64,000 bases of DNA from Escherichia coli (GTDB taxonomy: Bacteria; Pseudomonadota; Gammaproteobacteria; Enterobacterales; Enterobacteriaceae): NCBI RefSeq assembly GCF_013122565.1, contig NZ_CP053258.1. One strand, given 5' to 3'. Position numbers and translations under genes: made by a program. This document shows positions 4,671 through 59,642 of this stretch, one piece after another. The stretch's first letter is position 1. Each line of letters begins with the position of its first letter. The notes beneath the pieces were generated by a model. That model saw only the letters and a list, made by a program, of their open reading frames with translations. It made no database searches and was not told the origin of the DNA.

Positions 4671-4726
4671 AACAAAGCTTACTTTGTCTGCAATCTGAAT
4701 CGGGGCTATCGTGCCCAGTTTATTCT

Positions 4727-7423
4727 TTATTGCCAGCCGTAACGTCGGCTATAGAACCCTTTCACCAACTGGGTTAATGTCATATACCCTGCCAGAATCG
4801 CAACCAGCCACGGGAAATAGCTTAACGGCAGCGCCTGCAGCTGCAGATAACTGGCCAGCGGTGAAAACGGCAATGCGATCCCGACAATCATCACGATCAC
4901 GGTCATGATCATTAACGGCCACGATGCACAGCTCTGAATAAACGGCACACGACGGGTGCGGATCATATGCACAATCAGCGTTTGTGACAGCAAGCCCACC
5001 ACAAACCATCCCGACTGGAACAGCGTTTGCGTTTCCGGCGTGTTGGCATGGAATACCCACCACATCAGGCAAAACGTCAGAATATCGAAGATCGAGCTGA
5101 TCGGTCCGAAGAAGATCATAAAGCGCCCCAGATCCGCCGGATTCCAACGCTGCGGCTTTTGAATTTGCTCGTCGTCGACGTTATCAAACGGGATCGCCAC
5201 CTGTGACACATCGTACAGCAGGTTCTGAATAAGCAAGTGTAACGGCAACATCGGCAGGAAGGGCAAGAAAGCACTCGCCACCAGCACGCTGAACACATTA
5301 CCGAAGTTAGAGCTCGCCGTCATTTTGATGTATTTCAGCATGTTGGCGAAAGTGCGACGTCCCTCAATAACCCCCTCTTCCAGCACCATCAGGCTTTTTT
5401 CCAGCAGGATGATATCAGCCGCTTCACGGGCAATATCTACCGCGCCGTCCACAGAAATGCCGATATCCGCAGCGCGTAAGGCGGGCGCATCATTAATACC
5501 ATCGCCCATAAAGCCAACCACATGCCCTTCGCGCTTCAGTAAGGTCACAATGCGTTCTTTATGCATCGGCGTCAGGCGGGCAAACAGCGTGGTGCGCTGT
5601 GCGAGATTTGCCAGTTCGTCGTCAGATAGCGTTTCAATATCACTACCAATGACCACCTCTCCCGCGTCCAGCCCCACTTCATGGCACACTTTCGCTGCAA
5701 CTAACTCACTGTCGCCAGTAAGGATTTTTACGGTAATTCCACTCGCTTTTAATGCCTTCAGTGCCGGAGCGGTTGTCTCTTTTGGCGGATCAAGGAAAGC
5801 AATATATCCTTCGAGGATCAGGTCGGATTCATCCGCCCGCTGGTAATCTCCTTCACGCGCTGGCAGGTATTTCGTCGCCACCGCAACCACGCGCAACCCC
5901 TGACGATTCAGCGTATCAGTAACCCGCTTAATCTTACGCAGCATGGTGTCATCGAGCGGTACTATCTCGCCATTGTGACGCACCTGCGAACACACATTGA
6001 GGATTTCCTGCAATGCACCTTTGCAAACCAGCTGATGGTGCTCGGTATTTTCTGCCACTACCACCGACATCCGGCGACGCTCGAAATCAAACGGAATCTC
6101 ATCAATTTTTTGCCAACGGCTGGCCAGCGAGCGCGCTGACTCTTCATCCGTACCTTCGAGCACCGCTGTATCGAGCAGGTTTTTAAGTCCGGTCTGATAA
6201 TGACTGTTCAACCACGCGCTATGCAGCACGCGTTCGCTGGTTTTACCGGAGATATCGGTATGATTCTCCAGCACAATTTTGTCCTGTGTCAGGGTGCCGG
6301 TTTTATCAGTGCACAGAATATCCATTGCGCCAAAGTTCTGAATAGCATCCAGATGTTTGACGATCACTTTCTGTTTCGACAGCTTTACTGCGCCGCGCGC
6401 CAACGTCGAGGTAACAATCATCGGCAACATTTCCGGCGTTAGGCCTACCGCGACCGAAAGCGCAAACAGCGCCGCTTCCCACCAGTCGCCTTTGGTGTAG
6501 CCATTGATTAACAGCACCACCGGTGCCATCACCAGCATAAAGCGAATCAGCAGCATACTGACGCGGCTGATCCCTTGCTGAAAGGCATTCGGCTCGCTTT
6601 CCTGCTCACTAACACGCCCCGCCAGTTGACCAAACCAGGTATTGGCACCTGTAGCAATCACCATTGCTTGTGCCGTGCCGCTCACCACGGTGGTGCCCAT
6701 AAAACACAGCGTGTCGCACTCCAGCGGATTGCTGTGCTCCGGCTGGCGAGTGGTAGCGGCTTTTTCCACGGGCAGAGACTCACCGGTTAACGACGCCTGA
6801 GCGACGAACAGATCCCGCGCCTGCAAGATACGTAAATCTGCCGGGATCATATCCCCCGCCGCCAGTTTTATAATATCGCCGGGCACCAGCTGGTCGATCG
6901 GGATCTCCAGCCAGCCATTTTCGCCTTTGTCGTTAATTACGCGCAGCACCGTCGCAGTATTGCTGACCATCGCTTTCAGGGCATCTGCCGCTTTAGTGGA
7001 ACGTGCTTCCTGAATAAAGTTCAGCAACGTTGAAATAGCGACCATTAGCGCGATAACGCCCGCGGCAAATAAATCTTCCGTGGCGTAAGAAATAGCGCCG
7101 AGAATGGTGAGTAAAATATTAAATGGGTTGCGATAGCAGACCCATAAATGTACCCACCACGGCGACGGTTGTTGTGCGGGTAATTTATTTTCACCATGTT
7201 GTTCGCGGGCAGATTCCACTTCCGCCTGATTTAACCCTTCCGGATGGGTGTCGAACGTTTTCCACAATTCTTCTTCGGGCATCACCGCCATTTTCAGGCA
7301 ATGCGCACTTAAGGACGGCGGGACCACCGTATTCACTGTCTGCTGCGCGCCAGGCAATGGATCACGATGAACCAGACGGGAAGGTAAATGGCGAATGAGC
7401 CGGGTAAAAATTTCTTTAAACAT
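4727..7423 (-). CDS. mgtA: Mg2+-importing P-type ATPase
   Basis: 898 aa; P-type ATPase motifs DKTGTLT and GDGINDAPAL; AAGGAG RBS upstream of ATG at 7423. Confidence 0.97.
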   Translation of the reverse strand: MFKEIFTRLIRHLPSRLVHRDPLPGAQQTVNTVVPPSLSAHCLKMAVMPEEELWKTFDTHPEGLNQAEVESAREQHGENKLPAQQPSPWWVHLWVCYRNPFNILLTILGAISYATEDLFAAGVIALMVAISTLLNFIQEARSTKAADALKAMVSNTATVLRVINDKGENGWLEIPIDQLVPGDIIKLAAGDMIPADLRILQARDLFVAQASLTGESLPVEKAATTRQPEHSNPLECDTLCFMGTTVVSGTAQAMVIATGANTWFGQLAGRVSEQESEPNAFQQGISRVSMLLIRFMLVMAPVVLLINGYTKGDWWEAALFALSVAVGLTPEMLPMIVTSTLARGAVKLSKQKVIVKHLDAIQNFGAMDILCTDKTGTLTQDKIVLENHTDISGKTSERVLHSAWLNSHYQTGLKNLLDTAVLEGTDEESARSLASRWQKIDEIPFDFERRRMSVVVAENTEHHQLVCKGALQEILNVCSQVRHNGEIVPLDDTMLRKIKRVTDTLNRQGLRVVAVATKYLPAREGDYQRADESDLILEGYIAFLDPPKETTAPALKALKASGITVKILTGDSELVAAKVCHEVGLDAGEVVIGSDIETLSDDELANLAQRTTLFARLTPMHKERIVTLLKREGHVVGFMGDGINDAPALRAADIGISVDGAVDIAREAADIILLEKSLMVLEEGVIEGRRTFANMLKYIKMTASSNFGNVFSVLVASAFLPFLPMLPLHLLIQNLLYDVSQVAIPFDNVDDEQIQKPQRWNPADLGRFMIFFGPISSIFDILTFCLMWWVFHANTPETQTLFQSGWFVVGLLSQTLIVHMIRTRRVPFIQSCASWPLMIMTVIVMIVGIALPFSPLASYLQLQALPLSYFPWLVAILAGYMTLTQLVKGFYSRRYGWQ

Positions 7424-43276: not shown

Positions 43277-44770
43277 TCAGTCTTTCAATGGACGTAATTC
43301 ATTGTTGTAACTGGTGTAACTGCCTTCAACGGTAAGTAGATTGCCGTTTTCATCAAGATGCGCCGCATTGAGTTGTCGAGTTTCATTACGCCGCTTCGCA
43401 TCACGAACCAGCCCATCGCCTACGTAATAAATATAGTGGTCATCATGAGCAAAGGTATCTGATAATTGACCATTGGCGTATTTAAACCACGTCCATTGGC
43501 CTTTAAGCTCAAATTTCTCAACCGTGTCTTTATCAATAAAATACGTATAGCGATCGTCATGTGCCAAATAATTTAATGTTGTGCCATCGGGGCTTTTATA
43601 CCACTGCCATTGCCCATTGATATCAAAAATAGTCACATCATCCCTTGCAAGGAAATAAACTTTATTCCCTACAACATTAGCACCTTCCTGTAATTCTTGT
43701 TGCGGGTCTGGTAAATGAATGACCGAAAGCGTTTTTTCGACCGCAGAAATATACTTCACCAGATAGAGCGAATCTTTATATTGCGCCACATTCTTCGTCA
43801 GCGGGCGAAAATATTCCGGATCAACATCAGGAATGGTCGCAACCCGGCAGTCATTGGCACGCCAGGAAGCATCACGCGTCATCCAGGTTACTTTATCCCG
43901 CTGTAGGTCAAATGTATTCCGGCAATCTTTACCGAACGAATAACGTTTCTCCCCGTCCTTATCGCGATAAATCAGCAGGGAACCGGCTATCCAGCGCACA
44001 ATATGAAAGGTGTCCGGATCGGCGTCGATGGCATCTCCGTTCACAAAGACCTGCGATTTTGTCCGCCAGATTGTATCCCAGGGTGCGGGATGCCCCCAAC
44101 TTTCACAACTGTTTGGCAAATAAAGAATATTCCGTTGGGCCCAGGGTTTAATATCAAGAATAGAATATCCTTGGGTACTACCCAACCAGCGTCCCTGAAA
44201 GTAAAGATTGCGACGATCTTTCAGCACATCCGCGGAATCAACTGAATTCATCCTCCCCCCCACCTGTTGCAGCGAATCCATATCGACCTGCTTTTCGCCG
44301 TGATTATCATCCGTGCGTTCGCCGTCAAAATAGAGGCTGTCTTTATCGGCAGCAAAACGCCCCCATGCGCGGAATGTTGCGGCATCGACTTTCGGTGTTC
44401 CCGGCGGGTTCTGAACTATTTTCCCTGCCCATAAAATATGGCGACCATCGGTCAACCAGTCGAAACGCCAACTGCTGTTAGTTCTGATATTAGTGCCAGC
44501 ATCTACCTGAACAAAATCATTATTGATATCATCAGGAGAATCATATTTATCATCAGTGCCGTTGGGTACGCGGCGAAGTTGCTTAAACTTCACCTGCGAT
44601 AAATGAATATCCGGAAAATAGAGTCCGTAACCATCACTATCTTCAACGATATATTTTGTGCCTTGCCCCCACGGCTGGTAGTAAAACGCAGCATAAGGCA
44701 CACCAGAGCAAGCTATTGAAGCGGTTGAAAATAAAGCCAGTGCGAGACAAACAGGTTTAATTGGCAACAT
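43277..44770 (-). CDS. Secreted repeat protein, DKNYY-like, paralog 1
   Basis: 497 aa; signal peptide; recurring D-x-x-x-L/V-Y-F/Y units (DKDSLYF, DRRNLYF, DDRYTYF, DDHYIYYV); shares a core block with the adjacent gene. Confidence 0.6.
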   Translation of the reverse strand: MLPIKPVCLALALFSTASIACSGVPYAAFYYQPWGQGTKYIVEDSDGYGLYFPDIHLSQVKFKQLRRVPNGTDDKYDSPDDINNDFVQVDAGTNIRTNSSWRFDWLTDGRHILWAGKIVQNPPGTPKVDAATFRAWGRFAADKDSLYFDGERTDDNHGEKQVDMDSLQQVGGRMNSVDSADVLKDRRNLYFQGRWLGSTQGYSILDIKPWAQRNILYLPNSCESWGHPAPWDTIWRTKSQVFVNGDAIDADPDTFHIVRWIAGSLLIYRDKDGEKRYSFGKDCRNTFDLQRDKVTWMTRDASWRANDCRVATIPDVDPEYFRPLTKNVAQYKDSLYLVKYISAVEKTLSVIHLPDPQQELQEGANVVGNKVYFLARDDVTIFDINGQWQWYKSPDGTTLNYLAHDDRYTYFIDKDTVEKFELKGQWTWFKYANGQLSDTFAHDDHYIYYVGDGLVRDAKRRNETRQLNAAHLDENGNLLTVEGSYTSYNNELRPLKD

Positions 44771-44802
44771 AGCGTCATCCTGAAGCTGTTAGCGTGAAGA
44801 GG

Positions 44803-45960
44803 TTATTTAAATAAGGGTTTAAGACCGCTCGGGGGTTGCTTCACCGATGACCAACCTCCCTTACCTAAGTTATAACGCAGCCATTTACCTTGTTGGACGT
44901 GCTCTTTCCCAACTCCAGTCGCTTGTTGAGTGTAAAGCTGCCCGTCTGTTGATATAAACGTGTTAGTTAATCCCCAACTACCACCTGCTTCAAGTGAGTC
45001 GGTGAGATCCTCTGGCTTGAGATTAATCAACTCCCCTTCGCCCAGGGCGTTGGTTGTGACTTTATAAATTTGGTTCTTATATAAACCGGTATTGCGAACA
45101 AACAGATAAAAATATTCCGGATCAACTCGCGGCAGCGTTTCATAAATACACTCACTGCCCGCTGGAGTGGCTTCATGTTTGAGCCAGGACACGTTATTCA
45201 GACCAATATTAAAAGGTGCACAGCGATAGCTGGTATCCTCCAGCTCATAGTCACGCTCACCGCTTTTATCGCGATAAACTAAGCGTTCGCCAGGCATCCA
45301 GCGGATTATCTGAAAGGTTTTACGATCGGCGGGCAGCGGCTTGCCATTAACAATCACCTGCGAATTTGTCAGCACAACAAATTGCAGGGCGGAATCATGC
45401 CGCACGATTTGAAACCCGTCAGCGCTTCCCAACCAGTGCCCCTTATGCCAAAGACTATTTTTATCACGCAGTAAATTCCAGATGTCCGTCTCTTCAAGCG
45501 TTGACATATCCACCTGCTTATCACCGCTATTATCATCGGTACGCTGACCGTCAAAATAGATACTGCGTTTATCAGCAGCGAAAGCGCCGAATGCCTGAAA
45601 ACTGGCAGCGTCGACTTTAGGTTTACCGGGGGGGTTTTTCAGGACTTTGCCAGACCAAAGGACAGAGCGTCCATCAGTGAGCCAGGCATGCTGGCAATCC
45701 CCCTCGTCATCACAATCGAACTTATCGGGATTAAAATCTGACAGTAACCGGCAATCTTGTTTATTGGTTAAATTGGCAATGCGCCAGAGGCGGGAAAAGT
45801 TAACGTCCAGCAGTTCGGAGAGGATCTCATCTTTTTGCCCCTTCTCTTCGGCAACGTAAACCGTGCCTTTCTCCTGCTGGCGGTAATAAAAATCCGCGCC
45901 CCAGGAAGGTGAAATGGAGAGCGGTAATGCGGTGATTAATAACCAACTTCGCGTAACCAT
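44803..45960 (-). CDS. Secreted repeat protein, DKNYY-like, paralog 2
   Basis: 385 aa from ATG at 45960 (MVTRSWLLITALPLSISPSWG-ADFYY...); ORF-track start at 45984 is TTG; core block shared with paralog 1. Confidence 0.6.
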   Translation of the reverse strand: MVTRSWLLITALPLSISPSWGADFYYRQQEKGTVYVAEEKGQKDEILSELLDVNFSRLWRIANLTNKQDCRLLSDFNPDKFDCDDEGDCQHAWLTDGRSVLWSGKVLKNPPGKPKVDAASFQAFGAFAADKRSIYFDGQRTDDNSGDKQVDMSTLEETDIWNLLRDKNSLWHKGHWLGSADGFQIVRHDSALQFVVLTNSQVIVNGKPLPADRKTFQIIRWMPGERLVYRDKSGERDYELEDTSYRCAPFNIGLNNVSWLKHEATPAGSECIYETLPRVDPEYFYLFVRNTGLYKNQIYKVTTNALGEGELINLKPEDLTDSLEAGGSWGLTNTFISTDGQLYTQQATGVGKEHVQQGKWLRYNLGKGGWSSVKQPPSGLKPLFK

Positions 45961-46085
45961 AGTGATCTCTGAAATGAGTGGCAAAGATCCACAGTAAGTC
46001 CGCGCCTGGGGGGATGTCGATGACGGTAAGTTTTTTTAGGAATGTATAAAGACAAAGGAGATTGCTGACAAAGTGAGCTTTGTTC

Positions 46086-49428: not shown

Positions 49429-50064
49429 TCACATGCATGGGGTCACAAGGAGCCAGCTTAAAAGCGTCTCCTTGATAACCTTATGTCTGTTCTCCAAAGC
49501 CTCAGGAGATATCATACTGATGTGATAAACCAACCCTAAAGTATGTTGGTTAAGAATATAATATCCAGCAAGAGCGGCAAGGCTAATGTTTACCTGTAAT
49601 GGATCTATATCTTGCTTAAAGATATTTTGTTTTTTTCCTTCATCAAGCAACCTTTCCATAATCTCTAAATGCGAGTGGTTAATTTCGGGCAAACGAGTTG
49701 ATTTCTTGTAGTGCTCCCCTCGACTTTGGTTTTCGGAATGAATTATCTTTAAAAACCAAGGATTCTTCACATAATAATCCCACGTAAAATCAATAAATTT
49801 TTCAATGGATTGCAATGGGTTTAGTCCAGTAAAGTCCAGATCTCTTTCTTTTTGCCGGATGTCATTACACGTATATTCAAGGACTTCAATAAACAAATTC
49901 TCTTTATTACCAAAATGATGATAAACAGTCTGCTTACTACAACCGGCTGCTTTAACAATATTATCGACCCTGGCACCTTCATAGCCATACTCTGCAAATT
50001 CATTGATAGCGCACAGTAATAATTTTTCTTTCAAAATTTGCACTTTACTAGTATCAAAATACAT
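49429..50064 (-). CDS. TetR-family transcriptional regulator, full length (ytfA position)
   Basis: 211 aa from ATG at 50064 ([58 protein letters not shown]...); divergent from the downstream operon. Confidence 0.75.
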
Positions 50065-50430
50065 CTTCACCCCTCACACTAATCTTGCCAACCTATTATA
50101 TACTCTTTTACCGCGTGACCACGCACATTTTTCATACAAAAATCATCATTATCTTACAGAGCATTAAACCTACTTACATTGTTTCGTTACTGTGAAACAG
50201 ACAGAAAATTTTTCCTTGATGCATATTTGTTAAAAATGGAATATGGCTTTAATTAATTATATTCATATAATGAATATTTAACTATAAATAATTAATTCCA
50301 TTTATTTTCAAAGAGTTATAATTTTAAATATGATCTCCCTCACGAATCAACCAACTAGATGGTTGGTTCAAATAAAATCTATAGGCATCTTTGTCTCCAT
50401 GATGAATCCTGTATTTAAAGAGGTCCAAAA

Positions 50431-51222
50431 ATGAAATCAAAAAAACCCGTTGCTATTATTACCGGTGCTGCCCGTGGTATCGGTAAAGGTTGTGCTATTG
50501 AACTAGCTCGCGCTGGATTTAATCTTCTAATAAATGATCGACCAGATAAAGACAGCATCGAAAAACTTAAAGCAACTCAAAAACTATGTATCGCTGAAGG
50601 TGTTGAAGTCATAACGTTTCCAGCCAACATTGGCGATTTAACGTTACATGAAAAGATGCTCGACGCGGCGCAAAATCAGTGGGAGCGTTTGGACTGCCTG
50701 CTCAATAACGCCGGAATTTCGGTGAAAAAGCGTGGTGATATTCTCGACCTGGAGCCAGACAGTTTCGACGATAACATTGCCATCAATACCCGCGCACCTT
50801 TCTTCCTCGCCCAGGCTTTCAGCAAGCGCCTGTTGGCGCAACCCAAACCAGAAGCTGAACTACCGCATCGCTCAATTATTTTTGTCAGCTCAATTAACGC
50901 CATCATGCTGGCGATGAATCGAGGTGAGTACACCATTGCCAAAACAGCTGTATCTGCCGCTGCCCGCCTGTTTGCCGCACGTCTTTGTGAAGAGCAAATT
51001 GGCGTTTATGAAATCCGCCCAGGTTTAATCAAAACCGATATGACTATTCCAGCAACAGCTTATTACGACGAACTGATCGCTAAGGGGTTAGTGCCATGGG
51101 GTCGTTGGGGTTTTCCACAGGACATCGCCTCCACTGTCCGTGCAATGGCGGAAGGCAAACTGATTTACACCTGTGGTCAGGCGGTCGCCATCGACGGCGG
51201 CTTAAGTATGCCACGCTTCTGA
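50431..51222 (+). CDS. Short-chain dehydrogenase/reductase (SDR)
   Basis: 263 aa; TGAARGIG Rossmann motif and Y-x3-K catalytic pair. Confidence 0.8.
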   Translation: MKSKKPVAIITGAARGIGKGCAIELARAGFNLLINDRPDKDSIEKLKATQKLCIAEGVEVITFPANIGDLTLHEKMLDAAQNQWERLDCLLNNAGISVKKRGDILDLEPDSFDDNIAINTRAPFFLAQAFSKRLLAQPKPEAELPHRSIIFVSSINAIMLAMNRGEYTIAKTAVSAAARLFAARLCEEQIGVYEIRPGLIKTDMTIPATAYYDELIAKGLVPWGRWGFPQDIASTVRAMAEGKLIYTCGQAVAIDGGLSMPRF

Positions 51223-51231
51223 GGCTGAACC

Positions 51232-52074
51232 ATGAGAGATCTGTTACATCGCCCGGATTTATTCAGCATCAATACCGCGACGCTGGGCTATAAAATGCCT
51301 CTGCCCGCCCTTATTGATGCTTGTGCCGCACGCGGCATCGGTGCGATTGCCCCCTGGCGCAGAGAGTTGCAGAGCGAAGATCTTCAGCAAATCGTCCGCC
51401 AGCTTGCCGCCAATAACATGAGCGTTTCTGGTTTATGCCGTAGCACCTACTACACCGCGCCGACGCTGGCAGAGCGCAAGCTGGCGATTGATGATAACCG
51501 CCGGGCGCTGGACGACGCAGCGATGCTGAACGCCGCCTGTTATATGCAGGTGGTTGGCGGTCTGCCAACGGGCACTAAAGATCTGTATGAAGCGCGGGAG
51601 CAAGTGAAAGAAGGGGTTCGCCAGTTGCTGTCACATTCGAAAGATGTCGGCGTGCCGATTGCACTGGAGCCACTGCACCCGATGACTGCTGCCGATCGCT
51701 CTTGCCTCTGCTCGCTACGTCAGGCGCTGGACTGGTGTGATGAACTCGATCCCGATGGTGAGTTTGGCCTCGGCGTGGCGGTCGATGTCTACCACGTCTG
51801 GTGGGATCCGGATCTCACCAGTCAGATCCTGCGCGCTGGAAAACGGATCCTCGCGTTTCATGTTTCCGACTGGCTGGTGCCGACGACCGATCTGGTCAAT
51901 GATCGGGGAATGCCGGGAGATGGCGTCATCAATATTCCGTCAATTCGTCGGCTGGTTGAAAACGCCGGATTTAATGGTTCTATCGAATTAGAAATATTTT
52001 CTTCATTCTGGTGGGAAAAGAATATCAACCAAATACTGGATAAAAGTATTAACGGACTTTCTTATTATTGTTAA
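51232..52074 (+). CDS. Sugar-phosphate isomerase/epimerase (xylose-isomerase-like TIM barrel)
   Basis: 280 aa; family assigned from overall sequence character; 9 nt after the SDR stop. Confidence 0.7.
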   Translation: MRDLLHRPDLFSINTATLGYKMPLPALIDACAARGIGAIAPWRRELQSEDLQQIVRQLAANNMSVSGLCRSTYYTAPTLAERKLAIDDNRRALDDAAMLNAACYMQVVGGLPTGTKDLYEAREQVKEGVRQLLSHSKDVGVPIALEPLHPMTAADRSCLCSLRQALDWCDELDPDGEFGLGVAVDVYHVWWDPDLTSQILRAGKRILAFHVSDWLVPTTDLVNDRGMPGDGVINIPSIRRLVENAGFNGSIELEIFSSFWWEKNINQILDKSINGLSYYC

Positions 52075-52223
52075 ACATCACACTATATTTTTCTCTCGAA
52101 ATTAGTTGATTGTTTAAATTTGCATGTTTTAGAAAGTTATGAGTGAAGTAATAAATCAATAAATTAAATATCTTACAGAGCATTGCGAGTGTTAGGTATT
52201 TATAATCAAATAGGGATTGGCAT

Positions 52224-53765
52224 ATGAGCAAGATTAATACTGCAGAAATACTGGTCGCAGGTATTAAAGATGGCGCAACAATCGCCATTAGCGGTAATGG
52301 CGGTGGAATGGTTGAAGCCGATCATCTACTACAAGCTCTGGAAACACGGTTTCTGGAAACCGGGCATCCATGTAACCTTACGCTTATACACTCATTAGGT
52401 GTAGGAGACCGTGAACACAAAGGCAGTAACCGTTTTGCTCATAAAGGAATGTTAAAGCGTGTTATTGCAGGACATTTCACATGGTCACCAAGAATGCAGG
52501 CTCTGGTTAAGAATAATGAGGTCGAGGCTTATTGCTTTCCTAGCGGAGTTATTCAGACATTATTACGTGAAATAGGCGCTGGACGTCCAGGACTGTTCAC
52601 CCATGTCGGGGTAGGAACTTTTATTGATCCGCGTAATGGAGGAGGGAAATCTAATTCACGAACGACAGAGGATCTGGTAGAGCTAATTGAAATTGATGGA
52701 GAAACAAAGCTACGCTATCGCCCATTTAAAGTTGATTACGCAATTGTGCGCGGTACTTATGCGGATTCACGCGGTAATATTAGCCTGGAAGAAGAAGCCG
52801 TCGATCTGGATTGCAATTCTATAGCTCTAGCTGCCCATAATAGCGGTGGTAAAGTCTTTGTGCAGGTACGTGACATTCTTGAAACAGGTGCGATTGAACC
52901 CAGACGAGTAAAAATACCCGGAATCTTAGTCGATGGCGTCGTGGAATATAGAGATCAACAACAAACATATCTTGGTGGTTACGATCTTACTATCAGCGGC
53001 CAGCATCGTCGTCTTTGTTCTCAAAACTCTATTGAACTGGTTTCAAACCCAATACGTCGATTAATTGCACGCCGTGCAGCACGCGAGTTAGTTGCTGGCG
53101 CATCCACAAACTTTGGCTTTGGCATGCCAGGAGGGATCCCAGGTATTGCTCTGCGTGAAGGAGTCCCTTTTGATACCCTTTGGCTCAGCGTGGAACAAGG
53201 TGTGCATAATGGCATGATGCTGGATGATGCTCTGTTTGGCTGTGCTCGCAATGCTGATGCGATAATTCCTTCTCTTGAGCAGTTTGATTTTTATAGTGGT
53301 GGTGGTGCCGATATAACTTTTCTCGGTATGGGGGAAATGGATCAGTATGGAAACGTGAATGTTTCCCATCTCAACAATAACCTTATCGGACCAGGCGGTT
53401 TTATCGAAATTGCACAGAATGCCCATAAAGTGGTGTTCTGCGGCACGTTTGATGCCAAGGGTAGCAAAATAAACGTCACAAATGCGGGCCTGGAAATCAT
53501 TCAATCCGGCCAGGTAGCAAAACTTGTTTCACAAGTAGAAGAGATAACTTTCAGCGGAGAATATGCGCAACAACGTAAACAGGATGTGTTGTACATTACC
53601 GAGCGCGCTGTATTCCAGTTAACGCCACAGGGTGTGGAACTAATTGAGGTTGCCCCTGGCGTGGACATTGACCACGACATTCTGCCGTATATGGCCTTCC
53701 GTCCAATTATCAAGCACCCACGCCTGATGGAAAGTAGTCTGTTTACGCCGATGGAGGATGCATGA
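52224..53765 (+). CDS. Family I CoA-transferase (fused alpha/beta, YdiF/Pct-like)
   Basis: 513 aa; glycine-rich motifs (ISGNGGGM, GPGGFIEIAQNA); stop overlaps next gene start. Confidence 0.7.
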   Translation: MSKINTAEILVAGIKDGATIAISGNGGGMVEADHLLQALETRFLETGHPCNLTLIHSLGVGDREHKGSNRFAHKGMLKRVIAGHFTWSPRMQALVKNNEVEAYCFPSGVIQTLLREIGAGRPGLFTHVGVGTFIDPRNGGGKSNSRTTEDLVELIEIDGETKLRYRPFKVDYAIVRGTYADSRGNISLEEEAVDLDCNSIALAAHNSGGKVFVQVRDILETGAIEPRRVKIPGILVDGVVEYRDQQQTYLGGYDLTISGQHRRLCSQNSIELVSNPIRRLIARRAARELVAGASTNFGFGMPGGIPGIALREGVPFDTLWLSVEQGVHNGMMLDDALFGCARNADAIIPSLEQFDFYSGGGADITFLGMGEMDQYGNVNVSHLNNNLIGPGGFIEIAQNAHKVVFCGTFDAKGSKINVTNAGLEIIQSGQVAKLVSQVEEITFSGEYAQQRKQDVLYITERAVFQLTPQGVELIEVAPGVDIDHDILPYMAFRPIIKHPRLMESSLFTPMEDA

Positions 53766-55834
53766 GTCAGCTTGATGACACCATCCTTGATGCGCTGACA
53801 CACGTCACTTTCCCAAAGGGGTTTGTGTCAGCAGAGCCAACACCAATTGTCACCGTTGAGGATGTTGATTACCCGATCTGGCACGTTGATGCGCTGGTCG
53901 TTGGTAGCGGCGCAGCAGGATTACGTGCGGCAGTTGAACTTAAACGCCGCCAGCAAAATGTGCTGATCGCTACCGCCGGGTTATATATGGGGACGTCGGC
54001 ATGTTCTGGTTCCGATAAACAGACACTGTTTACCGCCGCTACCGCGGGCAACGGCGACAACTTCACCAAACTGGCAGAGGCACTGGCGAGCGGTGGGGCG
54101 ATGGATCACGACACCGCTTATGTCGAAGCGGTAGGTTCTCTGCACACTCTAGGCGGGTTGCAATATCTTGGTCTGGAATTACCGGAAGATCGCTATGGCG
54201 CGATTCTTCGTTATCAAACCGACCATGACGAAGCTGGGCGTGCAACCTCGTGTGGGCCGCGTACCTCAAGGTTAATGGTGAAAGTGCTGTTGGAAGAAGT
54301 ACAGCGCCTCGCCATTCCAGTGTTGACCAGTGCAACAGTGATTAAACTGCTGCATCAGCGTGACGAAAACGGCGAAGACCGCGTGGCAGGGGCAATCCTC
54401 GCGACCGGTCATCGCGCCCATAACCCATGGGGGCTGGCAATTGTGACTGCGCCCAATGTGGTACTGGCAACGGGCGGACCGGGCGAGCTTTATCGCGACA
54501 GTGTTTATCCACATAAATGCTTCGGCTCGCTGGGGCTGGCGCTGGAGGAAGGTCTGACGCTAACCAATCTGACCGAAAGCCAGTTTGGTATAGGCACACC
54601 GCGCAGCACGTTTCCGTGGAATTTGTCCGGCACCTATGTGCAGGTGATCCCGTATATCTATTCCGTGGATGCTGAGGGTAACGAGTATAACTTCCTCGCG
54701 GATTACTATCGCACCACCCAAGAGCTGGCTTCAAACATCTTCCGTAAAGGCTATCAGTGGCCGTTCCACGCCACGCGGGTAATGGATTTTGGCTCCAGCT
54801 TGTTAGATATGGCGGTGGCGCAAGAACAGCAACATGGTCGTCTGGTGTTTATGGATTTCAATCGTAATCCTGAAGCGGTGCCTGGTGATCTACCCTTCTC
54901 ATTAGATCGACTGGACGACGACGTTCGCGCGTATCTGGAAAATAACGACGCTCTGGCACCATCGCCCATCGAACGGCTGCAACGAATGAATCCGCTGTCT
55001 ATCTCGCTGTATAAGATGCACGGTTACGATCTCACCACGCAGCCATTGCAGTTTGCCATGAATAATCAGCACATGAATGGCGGCATTGAAGTGGATATCT
55101 GGGGACAAACATCCCTGCCCGGTTGTTTTGCAGTGGGAGAAGTAGCCGGTACTCACGGCGTTACCCGACCTGGCGGCGCGGCGCTGAATGCCGGACAGGT
55201 TTTTGCCGTGCGTCTGGCGCGCTTTATTGGTTGCACACAAAAGCGGTCTGTTGAGGAGGATGTCGCGCAGCTGGTAGCCTCATCTCTGCATATAGTCAGA
55301 GAAGTTATCGCTCAGGCACTGGCAAACGAGAACGGAATGGCGCTGGTAACGGTGAAAGAAAAAATCCAGGCGCGAATGTCTGATTACGCTGGATTTATTT
55401 GTCATGCCGATAAAGTTCGTCACGCCACCCGTGACGCCCTGCTGTTAAGTGAGTTTGTACAACAACACGGTTTGACCATCAAACATGTTGGCGAAATTGC
55501 CGAACTATTTATGTGGCGGCATATGGCACTGACTTCTGCCGCCATATTGACACAATTGACGCATTATATTGACGCAGGTGGCGGCAGTCGTGGGGCGCGG
55601 ATAATTATTGATCACTATGGGGAAGGTCTACCACAAACTCGACAGGGTGCAAAAGAAAAATGGCGTTTTAGATTGGAGTCTGAAAATGAAAGAGAATCAC
55701 GAGCAACGATTCAGCTTAACAATGGAGAATTTATAATAAATAAAAACAAGATACGTCAAATAATCAATTTCAAAAATAATTATTTTGAAAAAAATTGGCC
55801 GGAGTTTCTCCTTGGAGAAATCTATATAAAATAA
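53762..55834 (+). CDS. FAD-dependent oxidoreductase (fumarate reductase/succinate dehydrogenase flavoprotein-like)
   Basis: 690 aa; N-terminal dinucleotide-binding motif VVGSGAAGLRAA; ATGA overlap with CoA-transferase gene; AT-rich 3' end. Confidence 0.65.
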   Translation: MSQLDDTILDALTHVTFPKGFVSAEPTPIVTVEDVDYPIWHVDALVVGSGAAGLRAAVELKRRQQNVLIATAGLYMGTSACSGSDKQTLFTAATAGNGDNFTKLAEALASGGAMDHDTAYVEAVGSLHTLGGLQYLGLELPEDRYGAILRYQTDHDEAGRATSCGPRTSRLMVKVLLEEVQRLAIPVLTSATVIKLLHQRDENGEDRVAGAILATGHRAHNPWGLAIVTAPNVVLATGGPGELYRDSVYPHKCFGSLGLALEEGLTLTNLTESQFGIGTPRSTFPWNLSGTYVQVIPYIYSVDAEGNEYNFLADYYRTTQELASNIFRKGYQWPFHATRVMDFGSSLLDMAVAQEQQHGRLVFMDFNRNPEAVPGDLPFSLDRLDDDVRAYLENNDALAPSPIERLQRMNPLSISLYKMHGYDLTTQPLQFAMNNQHMNGGIEVDIWGQTSLPGCFAVGEVAGTHGVTRPGGAALNAGQVFAVRLARFIGCTQKRSVEEDVAQLVASSLHIVREVIAQALANENGMALVTVKEKIQARMSDYAGFICHADKVRHATRDALLLSEFVQQHGLTIKHVGEIAELFMWRHMALTSAAILTQLTHYIDAGGGSRGARIIIDHYGEGLPQTRQGAKEKWRFRLESENERESRATIQLNNGEFIINKNKIRQIINFKNNYFEKNWPEFLLGEIYIK

Positions 55835-55937
55835 ACGCCTTTTAAATCGGTAGCTATTAAATAAATATTTTATGATTTGCAAAATTCACGCTTTTACATT
55901 GTGAGTATTTTCTATTGATAATATCAAAGGTTTAATC

Positions 55938-57218
55938 ATGAAAAAAATCAAGCACTATAGGTGGCATATTATCGTCTTAATATGTTTCATCACTGTAATT
56001 AATTATTTGGACAGAACAGCATTAGGCGTGGCCGCGCCCACAATAATGCAAACGATGGGGATAACTAAAGAGCAATATTCATGGGTTGTCAGTGCATTCC
56101 AGTTAGCATATACAATTGGACAACCTGTAATGGGATTCTTTATTGACCTTATCGGTCTGAAATTTAGCTTTTTCATTTGCATTATAATCTGGGGACTTGC
56201 CACTATGGGGCACGCATTAGCGGGATCCTGGCAAGGTTTGGCCTTTATGCGTGGCCTGATGGGAGTAAGTGAAGCCTCCGTCTTTCCCGCAGGGATAAAG
56301 ACTGTATCGACGTGGTTTCCTGCTAAAGAACGCGGTATTGCTGCGGGATTCTTCAACACGGGTACATCTCTTGGTGCCATGCTTGCTCCACCGCTTATTG
56401 CCTGGTGCATAATGTTCCATAGTTGGCAATTCGCATTTCTGGTTTCTGGCTGTCTGGCATTATTTGCGGCAGTGATGTGGTTTATCTTTTATAAAGACCC
56501 CAAAGATGCCAAAGGACTTTCTGAAGAGGAAAGACACTATATAGAGTCTGGGCAAGAAAAACATCTTGATTCTAATAAAAGTAAAAAAGCAACCATTCTT
56601 CATGTTATTAAAAAACGCAATTTCTGGGGTATTGGCATTACCCGTTTCCTGGCAGAACCAGCTTGGGGAACAATCAACTTTTGGGTACCTATATTTTTCG
56701 TTGAAACATTGCATTTCAGCTTAAAAGATATAGCAATGTTTATCTGGCTCCCGTTTTTATTAGGTGACTTGGGTTGTTTATCTAGTGGTTTTATCGCTAA
56801 GTTTTTTCACGATCGCGGGGTTAGCCTTCTTAATGCACGAAGAATTACATTTACATTCGCTGCAACAACGATGATGTCGATTGGTTTGGTTAGCATCGTC
56901 ACTAATCCGTACATTGCTGTATTACTAATTAGTATCGGTGCATTCTCACATCAATGCCTATCTACTGTTGTTGCCACTATGGGGGCCGATCTTTTTGAAA
57001 AAGAAGAAGTCGCAACAGTAGTTGGATTATCGGGAGGGTGTGGATATACAGGGCAACTGATATTTAATATATTCATTGGTGTATTCGTTGCTGCAATTGG
57101 CTTCTCGACATTCTTTGTGATACTTGCCTTCCTGGATATTATTGGTGCCATTATTTTATGGTCTGTAATTAGACCACCGAAACTTGTTGAACAAACAAAT
57201 TTAGTAACACAATCGTAG
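55938..57218 (+). CDS. MFS transporter
   Basis: 426 aa, about 12 TM segments, AT-rich codon usage. Confidence 0.8.
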   Translation: MKKIKHYRWHIIVLICFITVINYLDRTALGVAAPTIMQTMGITKEQYSWVVSAFQLAYTIGQPVMGFFIDLIGLKFSFFICIIIWGLATMGHALAGSWQGLAFMRGLMGVSEASVFPAGIKTVSTWFPAKERGIAAGFFNTGTSLGAMLAPPLIAWCIMFHSWQFAFLVSGCLALFAAVMWFIFYKDPKDAKGLSEEERHYIESGQEKHLDSNKSKKATILHVIKKRNFWGIGITRFLAEPAWGTINFWVPIFFVETLHFSLKDIAMFIWLPFLLGDLGCLSSGFIAKFFHDRGVSLLNARRITFTFAATTMMSIGLVSIVTNPYIAVLLISIGAFSHQCLSTVVATMGADLFEKEEVATVVGLSGGCGYTGQLIFNIFIGVFVAAIGFSTFFVILAFLDIIGAIILWSVIRPPKLVEQTNLVTQS

Positions 57219-57269
57219 TTTTTATTTTTACCTATAGAATTTTAATCGAAAAAAAATAAAGGAAAGATT

Positions 57270-57749
57270 ATGTCTCAAACAGAAATTATTCTTCCTTCAG
57301 GAAGAGAACTTACTCCAGGTGAATATGGTTATGCCAATCTGGAACCTGGCGATCACTACCAGACTCCCGGTCTTAACGTAACAGAGTCACAGATTGTTGC
57401 TTTTGCGGGGATAAGCGGTGATTTTTTCGATGTTCATATGGATGATGAATTTGCAAGGGAAAAAGGATTTCCAGGACGCATTGCCCACGGTCTGTTAGGT
57501 TTAGCATTGACGGACGGCCTGAAGAATCGTTCTATTGTACGTTTACGTGCAGTTGCTACATTAAACTGGAACTGGTCATTCTGTGCACCATTATTGCCTG
57601 GAGATCATATTCACGCCGTTATTACTGTTGTTAAAAAACGCCCCACCAAACGTGAAGACCGAGGCATTGTGACTTTTGCTTTACAATTGTTTAATCAACA
57701 TGGAAAGATAATACAGCGAGGCGAAACTCTGCTGATGATGATGCAATAA
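57270..57749 (+). CDS. MaoC-like (R)-specific enoyl-CoA hydratase/dehydratase
   Basis: 159 aa hot-dog-fold-type sequence; GGAAAG RBS. Confidence 0.7.
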   Translation: MSQTEIILPSGRELTPGEYGYANLEPGDHYQTPGLNVTESQIVAFAGISGDFFDVHMDDEFAREKGFPGRIAHGLLGLALTDGLKNRSIVRLRAVATLNWNWSFCAPLLPGDHIHAVITVVKKRPTKREDRGIVTFALQLFNQHGKIIQRGETLLMMMQ

Positions 57750-57868: not shown

Positions 57869-59137
57869 CTAAATTGACGACCTGAATGCCTCTGCCATTA
57901 ACTCTTGCTCACGATCAGGTAATCTAAGACGCTCGGCAATAGTTTGCCACTGACTGACAATCCCTCTAAAATTAGCAATAATGTCATCAGCTTCCGTCAA
58001 ACTAAGTCGAAAATACTCTGCAACTTCTCTAGCTAATTCCAAATCAAGTGCATTATCATTTTCCGTAATATTAAGCTTTAAACCGTCAGATCTGGAAACA
58101 GGATTCAAATCATATGCTTCAGAAAGCCGCCAACCTTTTCCCGGTATCAAGATATATCCATGATTACGTAAATGATCATCGGTATTAGAAACAAGAATAT
58201 TAAAAACAATTCTGGACCAGAGTTCTTTAAGGTCAGTATTGGTCTGCGCTCCGTGCCTGATAAGAACATCTGCTAATTCCAGATAACTTACACCTGTAGA
58301 GGCATCTTCACCATCCTGATGTCTGGTTAGTGTCATAGCCGAAGCAAAATGCAGACGCCTTCCCGCATTAGTGCGGTCAAAACGACGAACCATAAAACAA
58401 TGGTAATTGCTGGCAAATTTATGCGCCTGAGCAGGTGCAACATTCAGTCCACAGCCAACAGCAAGCGCATTAACGACCATTTCCCATCCACCAACATCAT
58501 ACTCATCTTTTGCACTGGGAAATTTAGCGATGTAAAGATGTCCGGCTTCATCAACCACACTGGCTTTTGGACGTGCACCCCCTAATGATCCCCCCGGAGC
58601 GATTAGCATTCTTAACCATTTTTGCCCCATGAGTTCTTTATTATCAGGATCTTCTTCAATTGCCCGGCTAGCCCTTTCCAGACTCGCTATTTCGGTAAAT
58701 GGTGGGGCTGCAACATTAATGCGGTTATCAAGAAACTCTCCAGCGTCTTCACGTTTGTATCGAAGAGCCCCAACCCGATAAAGATCATGAACACCTAATA
58801 GATAGTCAGACTCATAAAGGTGGGAGTCTTTATCAAATAACCCATCTCGAATATCCCTCTCAAAACGACGCTTCATTAGCATACGCCCCCAACGATCCGG
58901 GCAGGAATCACTAAACGCACCAAATTTATCCTTTGGAGGAATTGGGTACTGTGCTCCCTCATACAACATTATTTCAGGATCTAACTGAATGAAATTAAGT
59001 GCACGATCTGCAAGCGCCTTTTTATCGTACTCAAACTCAAATATCTCACGCGCCCGAGTGCGACGACTGTGTAAATAACCAATACGCGCAGGACCATCCA
59101 GGCCTTCCCAATCCGCATACACTCCGATTAATGCCAT
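57869..59137 (-). CDS. HipA-family serine/threonine kinase (type II toxin-like)
   Basis: 422 aa; HipA-like motifs GGSLGGARPKASV (P-loop-like) and DDHLRNHG (catalytic); AAGGAAAT RBS; 13 nt after HTH gene stop. Confidence 0.8.
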   Translation of the reverse strand: MALIGVYADWEGLDGPARIGYLHSRRTRAREIFEFEYDKKALADRALNFIQLDPEIMLYEGAQYPIPPKDKFGAFSDSCPDRWGRMLMKRRFERDIRDGLFDKDSHLYESDYLLGVHDLYRVGALRYKREDAGEFLDNRINVAAPPFTEIASLERASRAIEEDPDNKELMGQKWLRMLIAPGGSLGGARPKASVVDEAGHLYIAKFPSAKDEYDVGGWEMVVNALAVGCGLNVAPAQAHKFASNYHCFMVRRFDRTNAGRRLHFASAMTLTRHQDGEDASTGVSYLELADVLIRHGAQTNTDLKELWSRIVFNILVSNTDDHLRNHGYILIPGKGWRLSEAYDLNPVSRSDGLKLNITENDNALDLELAREVAEYFRLSLTEADDIIANFRGIVSQWQTIAERLRLPDREQELMAEAFRSSI

Positions 59138-59150
59138 AATTAATTTCCTT

Positions 59151-59642
59151 TTATCGGTTTTTTATCGGTTTTTTTATCGGTTGTAATAGTGCAGCAAGAG
59201 AGGTTGACGTTTCCCCTGGAATAGTTGGCGTTGAGTCTTTTGCCAGTGCTGTTAAATCCGTGGTGAGATGACCTTCTTTCTCGCGTTTCGTCTGAAATGA
59301 GGCTGTCTGAATCCCTTCTTCATTCTTAACTGATGAACGAGAAAGCCCTCTTTTTTTAATCAAACGGGAATCCTGGAGCTGATGCCCTAAGGCGTCTTCA
59401 GCTGCAAGCTTATTTAAATCCGTTTCCAGGCCCAAAACCTGCATCACAGACAAATATGCCCCTATCGTGACCCCTGCACTTCCTGCCTCCAGAGAACGCA
59501 ATGTGATTGGCGACATCCCTGCACGCTCAGCAACTTGCTTTGCGGTTAGCTTACGTCGTAAACGAGCAAGTTTCAGACGCTCACCAAATTCACTAAGCAT
59601 CTGATTCGTATAAGGGAGTAACGGTGCTGTTTTTTTACCCAT
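59151..59642 (-). CDS. XRE-family HTH protein with long low-complexity C-terminal tail (HipB-like antitoxin candidate)
   Basis: 163 aa; HTH in [39 protein letters not shown]; about 80-aa S/T/K-rich tail ending [10 protein letters not shown]; start may instead be the internal ATG at 59600. Confidence 0.7.

Follow-up and report, generated by a model that had tools for sequence, protein, structure and literature searches.

The 366-bp gap that separates a ytfA-type TetR-family regulator gene from a divergent six-gene operon in Escherichia coli is a conventional TetR and CRP divergent control region with a lineage-specific AT-rich insert. We consider it quite probable that the working parts of this regulatory region sit at its two ends, and that the middle of the gap is an addition particular to certain lineages. 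The gap was analysed as part of a stretch of 64,000 nucleotides of E. coli DNA, referred to below as the window, and around 50 orthologous loci were compared in all.

The region belongs to an accessory E. coli island located between ytfB and rplI, and the adjoining cycA-fklB-ytfB stretch matches E. coli HS and further strains at 98.7–99.1% identity. On one side of the gap lies the gene for the regulator (49429–50064, minus strand), a protein of 211 aa recognised from Pfam matches and orthologues, with both of its domains present at full length (TetR_N, PF00440, 2.3e-14; TetR_C_29, PF17938, 6.7e-30). Orthologues with 97–57% identity are found in E. coli, Salmonella, Entomohabitans, Lelliottia and Leminorella, and the recognition helix, C42-H50, is nearly invariant across them. 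Homology with annotated 211-aa orthologues places its start at the ATG at 50064, not at the GTG at 50070, and the gap therefore extends from 50065 to 50430. On the other side, open reading frames and domain matches delineate the target operon (50431–57749, plus strand), whose six genes encode, in order, an SDR, a xylose-isomerase-like TIM barrel, a CoA-transferase, a FAD_binding_2 flavoprotein of 690 aa, an MFS transporter and a MaoC dehydratase. The original prediction had described a control region between a divergent TetR gene and an operon, and this is confirmed by the domains and the gene order; the two lie next to each other and divergent in the window, as they do at more than 20 orthologous loci. 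The term ‘catabolic’ seems a reasonable one for the operon, given its CoA enzymes, its transporter and its CRP control. Nothing was found in the literature on the function of the operon, and the flavoprotein and TIM barrel have only uncharacterised or remote relatives in the PDB.

The operon as such is common and the window's form of it rare. Of 5426 complete E. coli genomes, 3144 (about 58%) have matches to the SDR and TIM-barrel genes, and the window's long-form variant of the island occurs in nine of the 5426, at 88–90% identity. The ytfA pseudogene of K-12 is a 5′-truncated remnant consisting of the C-terminal 128 codons or so (positions 4695–5096 of locus L019); the helix-turn-helix, the operator, the CRP site and the operon have all been deleted, and yjfZ adjoins the remnant. 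E. coli O157 Sakai lacks the island, with yjfZ and IS609 at the same position. The operon in the window ends with the MFS and MaoC genes, where the common E. coli form has a TRAP transporter, which marks it as a mosaic. Between the TIM-barrel and CoA-transferase genes there is an intergenic gap of 149 bp (52075–52223, 27% GC) at the place where most orthologous operons have an enoyl-CoA hydratase gene, and no remnant of that gene is detectable within it. Further along, the lowest-GC 360-bp segment of the whole sequence (26.7%, from 55651) falls within an AT-rich tract, 55601–56210, that runs from the last part of the flavoprotein gene across a gap of 103 bp (25% GC) into the beginning of the MFS gene; this tract may be the junction where the MFS/MaoC module was added. 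Two further features of the surroundings were observed. One is a gene pair between the island and rplI (57869–59642, minus strand), in which a HipA-like kinase toxin (422 aa, HipA_C) is followed by an HTH_31 regulator (163 aa); the toxin appears to be split into two short hypothetical ORFs in E. coli EC23HZZ201. Between ytfE and cycA (43277–45984, minus strand) there are ORFs of 497 and 393 aa that have no Pfam match and are not present in the orthologous long-gap locus L001, which is the window's closest E. coli relative.

The base composition of the gap is unusual. The 360 bp from 50071 to 50430 have a GC content of 29.2%, against 50.2% for the whole window, and only 0.55% of 360-bp segments are as AT-rich; the most AT-rich 140 bp of all 64 kb start at 50195 (17% GC). 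A wider tract of low GC content (49461–50660; 1.2 kb, 34% GC) takes in tetR itself (36% GC) and reaches 200 bp into the SDR gene. The AT-richness is uneven across the gap, with an extreme part at about 50195–50335 (17–19% GC) and 30–36% GC at both ends. The original prediction of an extremely AT-rich control region of 360 bp thus holds for its composition, and has to be amended in that the richness is not uniform and the gap is 366 bp long. The long A/T runs and repeated TTAATT and ATAAAT motifs that it also described did not survive a comparison with expectation: TTAATT is present in three copies against 0.8 expected by composition (P about 0.05), ATAAAT is present once against 0.8 expected and so is not repeated, and A/T runs reach 16 nt at most, where 15 is expected. 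These counts and runs are close to what composition predicts, and are therefore by-products of it and not elements in their own right.

Comparison with orthologous gaps shows which part of this DNA most relatives lack. The first 15 tetR/SDR gaps collected came from four E. coli lineages, E. whittamii, E. albertii, Klebsiella spallanzanii, Salmonella, Lelliottia, Leminorella and Entomohabitans, and also take in three more distant loci at which the TetR identity is 59–61%. Twelve of the 15 are 204–233 bp long with 30–42% GC, and the window and E. coli EC23HZZ201 are the only two with 366 bp, at 29–30% GC; the Entomohabitans gap, of 423 bp, carries a GC-rich insert at the same place. A metagenome scan gave 31 distinct gaps, of which 30 are 196–213 bp long with 36–42% GC and one is the 366-bp form, and two further metagenomic relatives (L022 and L024) have long AT-rich forms. 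By local alignment, window positions 50065–50112 are homologous to the tetR-proximal 50 bp or so of the short gaps, and the sequence from about 50283–50306 to 50430 is homologous to their SDR-proximal 130 bp or so. Since only these two ends are homologous, the extra DNA is the segment from about 50113 to 50300, which is missing from gaps of 196–233 bp, that is from 12 of the 15 first-collected and 30 of the 31 distinct metagenomic ones. The suggestion that the region is longer than a simple divergent switch needs is thereby upheld.

A 22-bp palindrome, ATCAACCAACTAGATGGTTGGT, at 50346–50367 is predicted, on the basis of its conservation, to be the operator to which the neighbouring TetR binds. 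None of the 15 orthologous gaps lacks it, its position is always 63–70 bp ahead of the SDR start codon, and its core, AACCAAC...TGGTTG, persists where TetR identity has fallen to 59% and where the genomic context is unrelated (Leminorella and loci L015–L017). The information content is 1.75 bits per column within the palindrome and 0.7–0.85 in its flanks. Within the 64-kb window the palindrome is unique (0.06 expected), and no further operators were found elsewhere in the island. An exact 20-mer from it occurs at 95 metagenomic loci, 78 of them between complete TetR and SDR starts and six more cut by the end of a contig, so that 84 of the 95 adjoin a ytfA-type TetR gene, an SDR gene or both; three others lie within unrelated coding genes and were set aside as chance matches. 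The identical 20-mer is also found on contigs of 68% GC (L033, at 1793–1812, and L070), 56 bp upstream of a gene for a 185-aa TetR protein that is just below the TetR_C_29 cut-off and shares 24% identity with the window's TetR overall and about 54% in the helix-turn-helix. Further metagenomic contigs of 67–68% GC (L101, L103 and L119) contain the same 20-bp palindrome. The occurrence of this operator beside a TetR of 24% identity in bacteria of 68% GC suggests an unusually deeply conserved TetR-operator pair that spans phyla.

The retention of the palindrome together with the regulator, and the near invariance of the recognition helix, argue that it is the cognate operator of this TetR subfamily, and binding of the ytfA-type TetR to it is likely. 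It could be supposed that the palindrome serves some other regulator, a reading prompted by its ends, which read ATCAA...TTGAT in the short orthologues. The palindrome nevertheless travels with the TetR gene across genera and genomic contexts, recurs beside a remote TetR_C_29-like TetR in high-GC bacteria, and is found nowhere else in the 64-kb window, so we regard another owner as highly improbable. We know of no characterised TetR operator that matches the half-site CAACCAwCT. No second operator was found near the tetR promoter, and a single operator some 250 bp from the predicted tetR promoter leaves autoregulation unexplained. A mirror-image minus-strand promoter using the left half of the operator (TTGATT-18-TAAAAT) was considered and discarded, as it is not retained in the orthologues.

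Abutting the palindrome is a CRP-like site, TATGATCTCCCTCACG, at 50329–50344 (centre 50336.5), which matches eight of the ten core positions and was missing from the original prediction. Orthologues have TGTGA-N6-TC(A/G)CA at the same place, and of the 31 distinct metagenomic gaps, 30 match it at nine of the ten core positions. The orthologous site is occupied in another strain: in enterotoxigenic E. coli (ETEC) H10407, CRP ChIP-seq gave a peak, four-fold above threshold and with the site TGTGATCACTATCGCA, that was placed between an ‘ETEC-specific’ gene and ytfA (Haycocks et al., PMC4287617, Tables 1 and S3). We located this peak in the orthologous gap, of the short variant, where the site likewise abuts the palindrome. 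The CRP site is therefore known from published ChIP-seq data, and its link to an operator is new. The copy in the window is degraded (TATGA...TCACG), and 21 sites of this quality occur in the window against 25 expected, so that taken alone it is no better than chance and its significance rests on orthology. In the long variant L024 the left CRP half-site has been lost. The degraded site, together with the weaker −35 of the window (TTGGTT), means that the long variants may depend less on CRP. One further conserved block, TTTCA-N5-GTTA (50305–50318), lies upstream of the CRP site; its CA and T columns are invariant in 15 orthologues.

The predicted operon promoter (50363–50391, plus strand) follows directly, with a −35 of TTGGTT at 50363–50368, a 17-bp spacer, a −10 of CATCTT at 50386–50391 and a start near 50398. 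Its −35 sits inside the right half of the operator and reads TTGATC in the orthologues, where CAnnnT is always found 17 bp further on; the G, the C, the A and the last T are invariant across 16 orthologues. A −10 hexamer has two critical bases, and the invariant A and T of CAnnnT are consistent with them. If transcription starts near 50398, CRP would be centred at about −61.5, a class-I geometry, and the operator would cover the −35, extending from about −52 to −31. A class-II arrangement with a start near 50378 is possible in the orthologues, and there too the operator would lie inside the core promoter. The claim that the operon is repressed by TetR is accordingly well supported: every orthologue keeps the palindrome alongside the regulator, and the core promoter predicted from conservation is overlapped by it. 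Downstream, a Shine-Dalgarno sequence, AAGAGG (50418–50423, plus strand), lies 7 nt before the SDR ATG at 50431, with its GAGG kept in the orthologues, and no significant RNA structure was detected in the 5′ leader of the operon (z = +0.9).

A different start for the operon, near 50329, would follow from the perfect TATAAT at 50317–50322, in which case the CRP-like site and the palindrome would lie downstream and act as roadblocks. This hexamer matches the consensus at six of six positions, the GGTTA preceding it is conserved, and a consensus scan gives candidate promoters in the same area. It has no usable −35, however, and the number of promoter-like matches in the region, four, is that found in shuffled sequences (4.0). 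The orthologues read TATCAA, TATTAA, TGAATA or TTAAAA, all missing the critical final T, whereas the downstream CAnnnT has its invariant A and T, 17 bp past TTGATC, in all of them. A start near 50329 would furthermore centre CRP at +7, which is atypical, and we consider it quite unlikely that the operon is transcribed from there. The promoter with a start near 50398 is the one adopted here.

At the opposite end of the gap, the leader and predicted promoter of tetR (50065–50112, minus strand) are homologous to the ends of the short gaps. The predicted signals, on the minus strand, are a Shine-Dalgarno sequence GAGGGG at 50070–50075, a −10 of TATAAT at 50095–50100 and a start near 50088. The −10 reads TATAAT in the long variants and TATGAT in the short ones, and the block in the tetR leader is kept as CTATTATATAC in the long variants and as CTATCATAAC in the short ones. 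A second block, TTTTTCATACAAAAA (50128–50142), is kept in all long-gap variants including Entomohabitans and, counted from the predicted start of tetR, occupies about −40 to −54; in its position and its pattern of T-run and A-run it resembles an UP element, and it may act as one.

The spacer between these two ends, 50113–50300, occurs as a single copy, at this locus only, in the nine long-form genomes among the 5426 from E. coli, and has no plasmid match; an origin as a mobile element or MITE was rejected on these grounds. No Rfam family scored above its gathering score in 49800–50700 at a permissive threshold, and a match to csRNA (27 bits against a gathering score of 57) was dismissed as chance. 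No credible or conserved small ORF was found in the gap. A 27-nt inverted repeat at 50243–50301 and other AT-rich repeats are not kept in L001, and were discounted as artefacts of composition. The spacer may be functionless filler, the decayed residue of an old insertion or of a recombination junction that has pushed the two promoters apart. Such an origin would fit DNA that is lineage-specific and single-copy and contains no recognisable element, and Entomohabitans has a different, GC-rich insert at the same place. The divergence from L001 is also in its favour. The identity between the window and L001 is 98% in the tetR leader, 92% at 50113–50199, 74% at 50200–50300 and 95% in the operator, and at third codon positions it is 89% for tetR and 69% for the SDR gene. 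Set against the third codon positions, the value of 74% indicates that the core of the spacer drifts at a near-neutral rate. The fall from 92–98% on the tetR side to 74–88% on the operon side also locates what appears to be a recombination junction near 50200, inside the intergenic region, another point that agrees with filler.

Three observations do not sit well with a complete lack of function. The conserved block at 50128–50142 falls within the extra DNA. The AT-richness has been kept in three long-variant lineages (the window, L001/L022 and L024) while the sequence has not, and this could mean that composition itself is under selection, as it would be for H-NS binding or curvature, instead of purely drifting. 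Lastly, an exact 16-mer in the spacer, TATCTTACAGAGCATT (50150–50165, plus strand), has a second copy at 52169–52184, in the 149-bp gap described above, which is the other island-specific AT-rich non-coding gap. This sharing is beyond chance, as none of 1500 Markov shuffles had a shared word of 16 or more (the maximum was 13). The 16-mer is itself poorly kept, with 11 of 16 positions of the second copy retained in L001 and no retention in L024, and the flanks of the two copies are unrelated. Weighing these points, we take filler seriously as an account of the spacer, at somewhat short of an even chance.

The original prediction also raised the possibility that the operon is silenced by H-NS. 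In its strongest form, silencing would be the principal layer of control, with the spacer and the AT-rich tetR gene nucleating a filament over both promoters in addition to repression by TetR. The region has low GC content over several hundred base pairs and lies in an accessory locus, as expected of H-NS-silenced DNA: the 1.2-kb tract of 34% GC holds the most AT-rich 140 bp of the window, and the island is present in some E. coli genomes and not in others. The persistence of AT-richness in the long variants despite the drift of their sequence points the same way, and their weaker CRP sites would fit a rewired mode of control. In ETEC, H-NS occupancy tracks low GC content (PMC4287617), and the yjfZ/ytfA spacer of K-12 is flagged in genomic SELEX as a target of H-NS (PMC3946193). 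The latter cannot serve as direct evidence here, because homology with K-12 ends at window position 49811 and the K-12 spacer is not homologous to the gap.

Other evidence runs counter to silencing of this kind. We searched for the 10-bp high-affinity H-NS nucleation motif, which we take to be TCGATAAATT-like, and found no match with up to two mismatches in 50065–50430 (1.1 expected from shuffles); such matches cluster in and just beyond the tetR coding region, with up to four per 366-bp tile over 49651–50116. The insert at the same place in Entomohabitans is GC-rich. The spacer is, moreover, missing from nearly all orthologues, so silencing through it is not a conserved part of the system. 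Binding of H-NS to the region is plausible from its composition, and actual occupancy we would call close to an even matter. A physiologically important role for silencing is appreciably less probable, though far from negligible, and its standing as the principal layer of control is a tentative proposition that we are inclined to doubt. Any effect of H-NS would be a property of the rare variant, and the conserved switch does not need the spacer.

We therefore return to a divergent region whose working parts are at its ends. At the operon end (50329–50430), a weak sigma-70 promoter would start transcription near 50398, probably helped by CRP bound at 50329–50344, at about −61.5. The ytfA-type TetR, bound at 50346–50367, would cover the −35 and shut the operon off. 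The closest characterised TetR relatives sense acyl-CoA, and the inducer is thus probably a CoA-thioester intermediate or a substrate of the pathway. The tetR end (50065–50112) would provide the regulator's own leader and −10, with 50128–50142 perhaps acting as an UP element. The middle, from about 50113 to 50300, would consist of around 190 very AT-rich base pairs that drift almost neutrally and that by composition make a good target for H-NS.

This arrangement has clear parallels in well-known systems. As in TetR-tetO/tetA, QacR-IR1/qacA, AcrR/acrAB and RutR/rutA-G, a divergent regulator with a TetR_N helix-turn-helix is paired with a palindrome in the shared gap, over the target promoter, and by analogy with these modules relief by a small-molecule ligand would be expected. 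Unlike at tetO, there is one operator, some 250 bp away from where the regulator's own promoter is predicted, and classical autoregulation is not evident. The best-scoring solved or curated relatives of the regulator include FadR of Bacillus and Thermus and KstR2 (3vpr, 5gpa, 3whb and 4w97; NCBIfam FadR-Bac), and automated annotation names some of the orthologues KstR2. The target set, with its CoA-transferase, hydratase/dehydratase, SDR and flavoprotein, resembles those of the Bacillus/Thermus FadR and mycobacterial KstR2 systems. The NCBIfam scores are, however, far below the family cut-offs, the substrate as far as can be told is neither fatty acids nor steroid rings, and to our knowledge the operator is unlike FadR or KstR2 boxes.

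With regard to activation, the closest parallel is the class I lac P1 promoter, where CRP binds at −61.5: here too a site of the TGTGA-N6-TCACA type lies about 61.5 bp ahead of the predicted start of a weak promoter. The difference is in the position of the operator, which falls between the CRP site and the −10, over the −35, whereas lacO1 is downstream. The locus also shares with the H-NS-silenced bgl, proU, LEE and ETEC eltAB/estA loci a low-GC accessory island and a tract of more than 1 kb over the promoter region. It differs from them in that the AT-rich spacer is not conserved at the locus and the assumed high-affinity motif does not occur in the gap.

In conclusion, the AT-rich spacer that first drew attention to this region may be considered a minor evolutionary curiosity, and H-NS on AT-rich accessory DNA would not be a surprise. 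It is conceivable, though in our view unlikely, that the insert rewired the operon in a rare lineage, with H-NS taking the place of CRP, whose site decayed together with the −35. If this were true, one TetR-controlled operon would exist in two forms, CRP-activated where the gap is short and H-NS-silenced where it is long. The wider interest of the locus is in its ends, where we have delineated a probable operator, a link to CRP and a predicted promoter for an accessory operon that is uncharacterised yet common in E. coli and Salmonella. This map should ease the search for the inducer, and hence for the substrate of the pathway.
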